Below are positions 27,603 through 28,115 of a stretch of 64,000 nucleotides of DNA, piece by piece. The translations under genes and the position numbers were made by a program. Positions within the stretch are counted from its first letter, which is position 1. Every line of letters begins with the position of its first letter. A model generated the notes under the pieces. It was not told the origin of the DNA. It ran no database searches and saw only the letters and a list, made by a program, of their open reading frames with translations. Source of the stretch: an uncultured Prevotella sp. (GTDB lineage Bacteria; Bacteroidota; Bacteroidia; Bacteroidales; Bacteroidaceae); contig USJD01000001.1 of NCBI GenBank assembly GCA_900554835.1, positions 24,758 to 88,757 on the forward strand, given 5' to 3'.

Positions 27603-27771
27603 GACGCTCGTAATCTCGACATGTTTCTTTACGTGTTTCATATATCCTGATAGCGGAAGCTGGAAGATGCTGTGAGGGCGTCAGATAGACGCATTTAAGC
27701 ATCATCGAGCTTATTGAATATCAGGAAATTAAATTTTAACTACCTTGCAATCTATTGGCATGTTCCATTTG
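27603..27771. ncRNA. structured RNA-like unit 4 (array 2)
   Basis: Left box GTTTCTTTACGTGTTTCATATAT; hairpin 27646-27725 with apical GCGTC-AGATA-GACGC; right box AAATTAAATTTTAACTACCTTGCA. Confidence 0.6.
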
Positions 27772-27945
27772 AATTACTCATAACAGTGGTACATTTCTTT
27801 ATTGGTTTCATATAAGAGGCGTGTGCCTGCACATCGGCGCGATGTAGCCGGTCGATAGACCGGGCAACATCGTCGCTTATTGCAGGTCAAGCACGCCTTC
27901 TATTGAATTCTGTTACCTTGCAATCCATCGCTGTACTGCGTCCAC
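27772..27945. ncRNA. structured RNA-like unit 5
   Basis: AATTACTCATAACA..ATTTCTTTATTGGTTTCATATAA; hairpin 27816-27900 with apical CCGGTC-GATA-GACCGG; right box TATTGAATTCTGTTACCTTGCA. Confidence 0.6.
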
Positions 27946-28115
27946 AATTACTCATAACACCGACGTATTTCTCTATTTGCTTCATATTAGGAAGCCTATG
28001 CCTGTAATAGATGGGGAATGTGCTGGAGATAACCAGCATAATCTCCATCTCATACAGGTTAAAGGGCTTCATGATTGAATATTGCTACCTTGTAATCACT
28101 TGCTACGCTGCAATC
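27946..28115. ncRNA. structured RNA-like unit 6
   Basis: AATTACTCATAACA..ATTTCTCTATTTGCTTCATATTA; hairpin 27990-28070 with apical TGCTGG-AGATAA-CCAGCA; right box ATGATTGAATATTGCTACCTTGTA; ends ~5 nt from the RT stop codon. Confidence 0.6.

Follow-up and report, generated by a model that had tools for sequence, protein, structure and literature searches.

The stretch of DNA analyzed here, referred to below as the window, comprises 64,000 nucleotides (nt) of an assembly assigned to an uncultured Prevotella sp. (GCA_900554835.1, contig USJD01000001.1, positions 24,758 to 88,757). Next to a gene for a reverse transcriptase (RT) of the UG27 class, it carries a series of hairpin-bearing repeats. 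This region is very probably the RT-proximal half of a split UG27 non-coding RNA (ncRNA) array in a large tailed phage, the hairpins of which would be copied into single-stranded DNA (ssDNA). The RT-proximal array (array 2) consists of three head-to-tail units of 167-170 nt at 27602-28113 on the minus strand, as delimited by the covariance model R2 described below, and three further units form a second, distal array (array 1) at 25635-26154, also on the minus strand. All six units, 167-174 nt in length, are matched by R2 on the RT strand with E values of 1e-18 to 3e-27, in agreement with the original prediction, made from the letters of this DNA without database searches, that the two arrays form one family.

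Read along the minus strand, array 2 opens with unit 6 (27946-28113; R2 133.1 bits, E 2.8e-27), continues with unit 5 (27772-27941; 126.2 bits, E 9.2e-26) and closes with unit 4 (27602-27768; 94.5 bits, E 9.7e-19). The distal array starts with unit 3 (25984-26154; E 2.1e-22), followed by unit 2 (25808-25981; E 1.8e-23) and unit 1 (25635-25803; E 1.4e-25). The original prediction had placed the array-2 units at 27603-27771, 27772-27945 and 27946-28115, and their hairpins at 27646-27725, 27816-27900 and 27990-28070. Both were recovered, the central hairpins being assigned here to 27644-27727 (unit 4), 27814-27901 (unit 5) and 27988-28073 (unit 6). On the plus strand, each array-2 unit displays the boxes TTTCTTTA-N3-GTTTCATAT and ATTGAA-N-TACCTTG on either side of a hairpin of ∼85 nt, and the three apical helices listed at the outset (GCGTC-AGATA-GACGC, CCGGTC-GATA-GACCGG and TGCTGG-AGATAA-CCAGCA) are present in the sequence, as is the shared left end of units 5 and 6, both of which start with AATTACTCATAACA (repeat family D7). 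The array-2 hairpins fold at z-scores of −4.9 to −8.0 relative to dinucleotide shuffles.

Exact matches to ATGAARCNNNTARAG number seven in the 64 kb, six of them distributed one per unit, and with at most one mismatch there are 12 matches versus 2.6 ± 1.5 in shuffles. The seventh exact match is isolated (9178-9243, minus strand) and has a weak match to the earlier model R1 (15.3 bits, E 0.43); it is absent from the matches of the refined model R2 and probably reflects chance. The arrays were not reported by Tandem Repeats Finder, because their units are too diverged. An ATG-initiated open reading frame (ORF) of 61 amino acids (27887-28072, minus strand) spans units 5 and 6; this is an array artefact that annotation pipelines risk calling as a gene. 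Arrays of this type are easily missed, or miscalled as spurious ORFs.

The RT gene (28120-29379, minus strand) encodes a protein of 419 amino acids (PADLOC RT_UG27 E 1.8e-197; Pfam RVT_1 E 1.4e-22), whose residues 1-419 align to positions 1-420 of the 420 in the RT_UG27 profile with 654.4 bits. The catalytic YSDD motif occupies residues 224-227 and is invariant in RT alignment A8. Only 6 nt separate the RT stop codon from the end of unit 6 at 28113, which bears out the description of array 2 as abutting it. Two accessory proteins are encoded between the arrays on the same strand: a small one of 156 amino acids (sORF, cluster 346; 27114-27584; PADLOC RTas346 E 5.5e-55) and a large one of 312 amino acids (bORF, cluster 337; 26162-27100; PADLOC RTas337 E 4.6e-108). 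RTas346 and RTas337 correspond to the two proteins whose association with UG27 RTs is known from Mestre et al. 2022 (PMC9226505). Neither protein has a Pfam domain, and sequence searches of the PDB gave no match for sORF and nothing significant for bORF (best E 0.057). On the minus strand, the block thus reads RT, units 6-5-4, sORF, bORF, units 3-2-1, and because the gaps between these features are only 6-31 nt, the whole appears to be co-transcribed as an operon, in keeping with the earlier remark that the arrays are placed as if co-transcribed on the minus strand. The genes of the window include a large terminase, a portal protein, a DnaB-like helicase, a RecJ-like exonuclease and a Sak4-like protein; the window is therefore part of a large tailed phage. 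Related RTs are found on IMG/VR contigs, many of them 100-250 kb in size, and a megablast search against GenBank phages returned no match.

The UG27 RTs belong to class 2 of the UG/Abi RTs and occur mainly in human-gut phages; an ncRNA with three long stem-loops was predicted beside the UG27 RT, and no enrichment in defence was seen for UG27 (Mestre et al. 2022, NAR, PMC9226505). A preprint of 2026-09-24 describes variable arrays of units of ∼135, 149 or 167 nt, mostly 149 or 167, in which each unit has a base hairpin, a pseudoknot and a main hairpin with an asymmetric internal loop bearing UUYA and AUCNNNNNNNUANAG (bioRxiv 10.64898/2026.09.22.753630). Five UG27 systems expressed in E. coli yielded ssDNAs of 50-100 nt that mapped to the central hairpins, started at AUC, ended after UUYA and were complementary to the RT-sense RNA; their synthesis needed the YSDD active site and both accessory ORFs, and no complementarity of these complementary DNAs (cDNAs) to phage or host genomes was seen (10.64898/2026.09.22.753630). 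The suggestion, made from the present locus, that RT-dependent cDNA was the right thing to look for is thereby vindicated in homologues. The main text of the preprint makes no mention of a wobble or mismatch bias or of the apical loop (10.64898/2026.09.22.753630). The UG27 units published to date number ∼82,000.

Two sets of related loci were compared with the window: a first set of 27 fetched loci, with RTs 52-88% identical to the window RT, and a second, independent set of 62 loci (RTs 55-67% identical) together with the cultured Bacteroides phage BS-TP1. The initial covariance model, R1 (176 positions), reported only three of the six window units, because it was longer than the repeat period, so that overlapping neighbours were discarded. 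Its trimmed rebuild, R2, was based on a MAFFT alignment of 50 units and contains 24 base pairs, the pseudoknot not being included; matches were considered significant at E ≤ 0.01 in the first set and the window, and at E ≤ 0.001 in the second set. R2 detected the six units of the window and no further copy there. In the first set it gave 132 matches in 26 related loci, none of them on the non-RT strand, and in the second set a further 127 in the 62 loci and BS-TP1, all on the RT strand. The 259 matches beside related RT genes represent ∼170 distinct related units, whose lengths cluster at 164-174 nt. In total, all of the significant matches (265, in 87 searched loci plus the window) are co-oriented with the RT, and the view that the units belong with the adjacent RT is upheld by this consistent linkage. 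In BS-TP1, whose RT is 57% identical to that of the window and is annotated as a ‘tail protein’ (PQ571274.1, L028, 5001-7612), seven units on the RT strand fill an unannotated 1.35-kb gap after the RT.

The fold of the unit is shown by covariation. It comprises a basal hairpin (Pa), a pseudoknot, helices P1, P2 and P3, and an apical stem (29 pairs, derived by inspection). In a sequence-only MAFFT alignment of 50 units, 91.0% of the cells pair, versus 59.4% in shuffles and 30-42% with slid partners, and the covariation score is 0.82 versus 0.24. In the pseudoknot, the loop of Pa pairs with the five bases that follow UARAGRAA; 98.8% of its cells are paired, with covariation at each of the five pairs. 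For the second set, the paired fraction is 93.6% overall and 94.0% in the pseudoknot. The apical loop reads YUAUCN on the RNA, and its UAUC core (GATA in the cDNA) is kept in 64 of the 89 distinct units of the window clade. In more distant clades, UAUC is kept in 25 of 84 units and the loop reads YUANCN. No Rfam 15 family matches either strand of 25500-28200 at E ≤ 1, and a tRNA scan and an Rfam search at gathering score gave no match in the whole window.

The same elements can be located in array 2, all on the minus strand. In unit 6, the basal hairpin lies at 28101-28112, its loop (28104-28108) forming the pseudoknot with 27963-27967, and P1 pairs 28092-28097 with 27946-27951 and P2 28083-28087 with 27955-27959. 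The pseudoknot of unit 5 joins GUACA (27932-27936) to UGUAC (27789-27793), with P1 at 27920-27925 and 27772-27777, and that of unit 4 joins ACAUG (27759-27763) to CAUGU (27619-27623). The motif at the predicted cDNA stop is UUCA in unit 6 (28076-28079) and unit 5 (27904-27907) and UUUA in unit 4 (27730-27733); over the window, five of the six units carry UUCA and one carries UUUA. The initiation motif, AUC-N7-UANAG in its published form, reads AUG-N7-UAGAG in unit 6 (27971-27985) and AUG-N7-UAAAG in unit 5 (27797-27811) and unit 4 (27627-27641). The N7-UARAG portion is present in all six window units, as is AUG, the predicted start triplets of array 2 being at 27639-27641, 27809-27811 and 27983-27985.

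The boundaries of the cDNAs of this locus were transferred from the published start and stop motifs, and may be off by a few nucleotides. On this basis, unit 6 is predicted to yield a cDNA of ∼97 nt (27983-28079, plus strand), an ssDNA hairpin with an AGATAA loop and a DNA fold of −21.7 kcal/mol (z −5.9; complementary strand −18.1). The predicted product of unit 5 is ∼99 nt long (27809-27907, plus) with a GATA loop and a fold of −30.2 kcal/mol (z −6.3), and that of unit 4 ∼95 nt (27639-27733, plus) with an AGATA loop and a fold of −20.0 kcal/mol (z −5.8; complementary strand −17.0). The array-1 products would correspond, on the same strand, to 26023-26120 (unit 3), 25846-25947 (unit 2) and 25673-25768 (unit 1).

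The following course of events is proposed. The minus-strand operon of RT, units 6-5-4, sORF, bORF and units 3-2-1 would be transcribed as RNA, in which every unit of ∼170 nt would fold independently. The loop of Pa would form its 5-bp pseudoknot just 3' of UARAGRAA, P1 and P2 coming next, followed by the asymmetric internal loop, with UUYA on its 5' side and AUG-N7-UARAG on its 3' side, and by the central hairpin of ∼85 nt with its YUAUCN cap. By homology with the five UG27 systems studied in E. coli, synthesis by the RT with sORF and bORF would start at the AUG triplet (AUC in those systems), proceed through the central hairpin and stop after UUYA, producing one ssDNA of ∼95-102 nt per unit. 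Being of plus-strand sequence, this ssDNA would fold into a hairpin with a GATA-type loop. According to the mismatch statistics presented below, the central hairpin appears to be tuned to fold as the DNA product, and the scaffold as RNA.

No locus mixes start triplets: those of the window clade and its neighbours have AUG throughout, and AUC is found in one RT clade, of which BS-TP1 is a member. The presence of AUG in all six window units and in every unit of each related clade locus, as opposed to the AUC consensus of the tested systems, could be taken to mean that cDNA synthesis is lost through the C-to-G change at the start site and that the AUG-clade array acts as structured RNA only, for example as a scaffold or sponge for the RT complex. 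We consider this improbable. The RT retains YSDD and both accessory genes are intact, the cDNA-sense bias in mismatches and stability is the same as in the set that holds AUC-type loci, and the uniformity of the triplet within loci resembles a maintained specificity rather than decay. Two candidate explanations of the triplet were rejected. RT residue 164, which at first seemed to be K or R in all AUG loci and A or T in all AUC loci, was considered as a determinant of specificity; L107, however, is truly AUC-type and yet has R164, and the pattern may be due to descent alone, because a neighbour-joining tree shows a single AUG/AUC split. A micro-ORF starting at the conserved AUG was discarded as well, since variation falls on codon positions 1 and 2 and not on the wobble position, and other clades carry AUC there.

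The RNA is the minus strand, given the order of the motifs, the co-orientation of the R2 matches and the excess of G·U pairs in the scaffold. The order UUYA, hairpin, AUS-N7-UANAG is present on the minus strand only. Among the scaffold helices, which lie outside the copied portion (Pa, pseudoknot, P1 and P2), G·U outnumbers A·C on the minus strand by 107:25 for the window clade and by 84:27 for the independent set. The original prediction had mildly favoured a plus-strand RNA, antisense to the operon and convergent with the RT, on the grounds of G·T wobbles in the plus-strand stems, and this preference was not sustained. Stability does speak for it, in that the central hairpins fold better in the plus sense in 80 of the 89 window-clade units (by a mean of 5.6 kcal/mol under RNA parameters), and whole units too are more stable in that sense. 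A functional plus-strand RNA would nevertheless turn the G·U pairs of scaffold and pseudoknot into A·C mismatches and would lack the published motif order; not one significant R2 match lies on the non-RT strand, plus-strand promoter-like sites are not in excess, and the tested UG27 systems produce cDNA complementary to the RT-sense RNA (10.64898/2026.09.22.753630). It is accordingly regarded as very improbable.

The wobble signal that had pointed to the plus strand is real in the central hairpins and does not extend to the scaffold. When the central hairpins were folded with Watson-Crick pairs only, which is neutral with respect to strand, and their 1x1 and 2x2 mismatches were then classified, A·C outnumbered G·U on the RNA strand by 38:13 in the window clade and 21:7 in the independent set. 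Similarly, pyrimidine-pyrimidine exceeded purine-purine mismatches by 45:21 in the window clade (one representative per cluster) and by 77:31 in the independent set. A tally over a larger set of homologues thus reveals a strand preference, opposite in the scaffold and the central hairpin (Fisher p 3e-12 for the contrast in the window clade and 1e-6 in the independent set). The cDNA sense is also the more stable in 73 of 84 independent-set units under RNA parameters, and under DNA parameters in 77 of 89 window-clade and 70 of 84 independent-set units. The flanking genes have a GC skew of +0.27 to +0.37 on the minus strand; a background of this composition should favour G·U on that strand, whereas the central hairpin shows an excess of A·C. 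Since the cDNA is complementary to the minus-strand RNA, the plus strand is the cDNA sequence, and as the plus-strand G·T excess is confined to the central hairpin, what was originally seen was the fold of the DNA product and not an antisense RNA. Most simply, the central hairpin would be under constraint as a DNA product and the scaffold as RNA.

Several points weigh against the interpretation of the locus as a UG27 array copied into ssDNA, or against parts of it. The cDNA step depends on homology to systems whose RTs may be distant, and initiation at AUG, which replaces the published AUC in the window clade, is a prediction. At 95-102 nt, the predicted cDNAs reach or slightly exceed the upper limit of the 50-100 nt reported. 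The units in which mismatches were counted share ancestry, and the counts are not phylogenetically independent, although a single representative from each 70% cluster still gives 17 A·C versus 4 G·U in the window clade. The asymmetry could also arise from selection that weakens the RNA template so that the RT reads through, or from avoidance of unpaired G in the RNA, in which unpaired G and C number 205 and 672, respectively. Finally, a scan that covered σ70-type promoters only revealed no excess of such promoters and no minus-strand terminator-like site; with 37 promoter-like sites versus 29.9 ± 5.1 in shuffles, it was uninformative.

The window clade has a conserved order of RT, array, sORF, bORF and array. 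Copy number varies, with one to six units in the first array, two to three in the second and up to eight per locus. Unit 4 represents a clean one-unit indel relative to the closest relative, L001 (RT 88% identical), in which it is absent: window positions 27597-27754 correspond to the junction 6626-6627 of L001, and the flanks on both sides are 84-86% identical. The central hairpins of array 1 are 86-100% identical to those of L001. In unit 6, the scaffold is 98% identical to that of L001 versus 74% for the central hairpin, and in unit 5 the corresponding values are 94% and 69%. The distal 40-45 nt of the unit 6 and unit 5 hairpins are replaced relative to close relatives (L001 and L024), with the UUAUC loop being kept; the two hairpins together have 49 differences in 174 nt, against a background of ∼15.5% (p 1.6e-5). 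Shuffling of modules was considered and rejected: no relative of the unit 4 and unit 5 central hairpins was detectable among 108 loci (L001-L108), and the hairpin of unit 6 matches only its orthologues, at 73-75%.

The variation of the distal stems between close relatives, together with the gain and loss of units, suggests that the cDNAs may be an exchangeable set of structured ssDNAs used during infection. Taken together with the G·T wobbles and purine-purine mismatches on the cDNA strand of the copied hairpin, seen in both sets of loci, this variation raises the possibility that the functional and selected form is the ssDNA copy itself, and the array a fast-evolving, phage-carried collection of structured ssDNA ligands or decoys, made during infection and directed at proteins of the host or of rival phages; we put this forward tentatively, as somewhat less than an even chance. 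A comparison of the six predicted cDNAs with the rest of the 64-kb window disclosed no match or complementarity beyond chance.

The clean gain or loss of one unit, like the tandem, hairpin-rich and intergenic character of the units, would also suit elements that act as DNA, i.e., recombination sites, replication iterons or a cruciform-forming origin, and not via RNA or cDNA. A strand-specific G·U preference in the scaffold is unexpected for duplex DNA, however, and the covarying pseudoknot is a tertiary feature of the RNA type. Moreover, the units are always linked to and co-oriented with a UG27 RT, and RT-dependent cDNA has been shown experimentally in homologues (10.64898/2026.09.22.753630), all of which leaves this alternative scarcely credible.

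Other features of the window and of its relatives were observed in the course of the analysis. Just downstream of array 1, on the same strand, are a DUF4241 protein (24640-25293, minus; E 5e-12) and a series of short, highly acidic ORFs. Approximately eight direct repeats of TCWTTTTGAGACA, at a spacing of 20-22 nt, occupy 43436-43590 within a gene-free region of 1 kb, where gene orientation and GC skew (−0.28 to +0.25) switch; they are followed by a promoter-like TTGACA-17-TATATT at ∼43597-43625. The repeats could be operator sites or origin iterons. As to the host, an RT 77% identical to that of the window is encoded on a 162-kb contig binned with a Faecalimonas sp. metagenome-assembled genome (MAG; L109, JAZRQP010000051.1), and one 64% identical on a contig binned as an Eubacteriales MAG (L110). 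From this binning, Lachnospiraceae or other Bacillota are possible hosts of the window phage. RTs of ∼55% identity occur in Bacteroidota, in Heminiphilus faecis and a Bacteroides phage.

UG27 is a phage-borne RT system whose biochemical output became known only recently. What the present analysis adds is that the strand is settled and the conflicting wobble signal explained, and that the AUG variant and a cultured-phage example are brought to notice. Three leads go beyond family membership. Comparison across loci provides evidence for selection on the DNA product as the force that shapes the hairpins, the clade-wide AUG variant of the start triplet constitutes a natural specificity swap, and BS-TP1, with its seven units, would offer a tractable system for the genetics of function.

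Among known systems, retrons resemble the UG27 locus in that part of a structured ncRNA serves the RT as template for a short, abundant ssDNA hairpin, and the RNA ends pair to close the module. They represent a separate RT lineage, with one ncRNA upstream of the RT as opposed to a downstream array, they prime their cDNA from the 2'-OH of a conserved G, and they serve in bacterial defence with toxic effectors, whereas UG27 is phage-borne and needs two unique accessory proteins. That the locus is itself a strict retron, in which a single msr-msd RNA would give rise to 2'-5' branched multicopy single-stranded DNA guarding a toxic effector, is most unlikely: an RT beside a structured ncRNA predicted to give a short ssDNA hairpin and the resemblance of P1 to retron a1/a2 repeats would fit, but the RT scores 654.4 bits with UG27 versus 50.3 bits with the highest-scoring of the listed retron RT models (Ec107-like), up to eight units per locus are arrayed downstream of the RT, no effector domain was recognized in the accessory proteins by Pfam or PDB sequence searches, no Rfam family matches at E ≤ 1, and the element resides in a phage genome and not a defence island, UG27 having no defence enrichment (PMC9226505).

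DRT2 (UG2), DRT9 (UG28) and DRT10 (UG17) also belong to class 2 of the UG/Abi RTs, and each of them takes as its template a neighbouring ncRNA that is dedicated to it and pseudoknotted. These systems employ one ncRNA to produce concatemeric, homopolymeric or tandem-repeat DNA for host defence; in UG27, by contrast, many template modules each give one discrete short hairpin. The window RT scores 38.5 bits with Drt2, 80.4 with Drt9 and 92.3 with UG17 in PADLOC, versus 654.4 with UG27. Diversity-generating retroelements share with the locus a phage RT, a small accessory protein, a dedicated template RNA and variable template-derived sequence. No second (VR) copy of any hairpin was found in the 64-kb window (best 13 nt, E 0.07), however, no Avd-like protein was detected, and orthologous hairpins differ by replacement and not by adenine-specific substitution.

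The closest counterparts are the UG27 arrays themselves. The locus has in common with them a UG27 RT with sORF and bORF in a phage genome, tandem RT-strand units of ∼167 nt, with a basal hairpin, a pseudoknot and an asymmetric loop bearing UUYA and a 3' N7-UANAG, and central hairpins and copy number that vary, with extra units in a neighbouring intergenic region. It differs in its start triplet, which is AUG throughout the window clade as opposed to the published AUC. The YUAUCN loop, found in ∼70% of the window-clade units, and the mismatch asymmetry (G·U in the scaffold and G·T on the cDNA strand of the central hairpin) are absent from the main text of the preprint. The production of cDNA was seen in the five tested systems, whereas for the window locus it is predicted from sequence. 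Judged at that level, the locus has every feature that characterizes the UG27 array family, AUG for AUC being the one variation. The find is real, the kind of system is not new, and the locus is an additional member of the UG27 array family already described.

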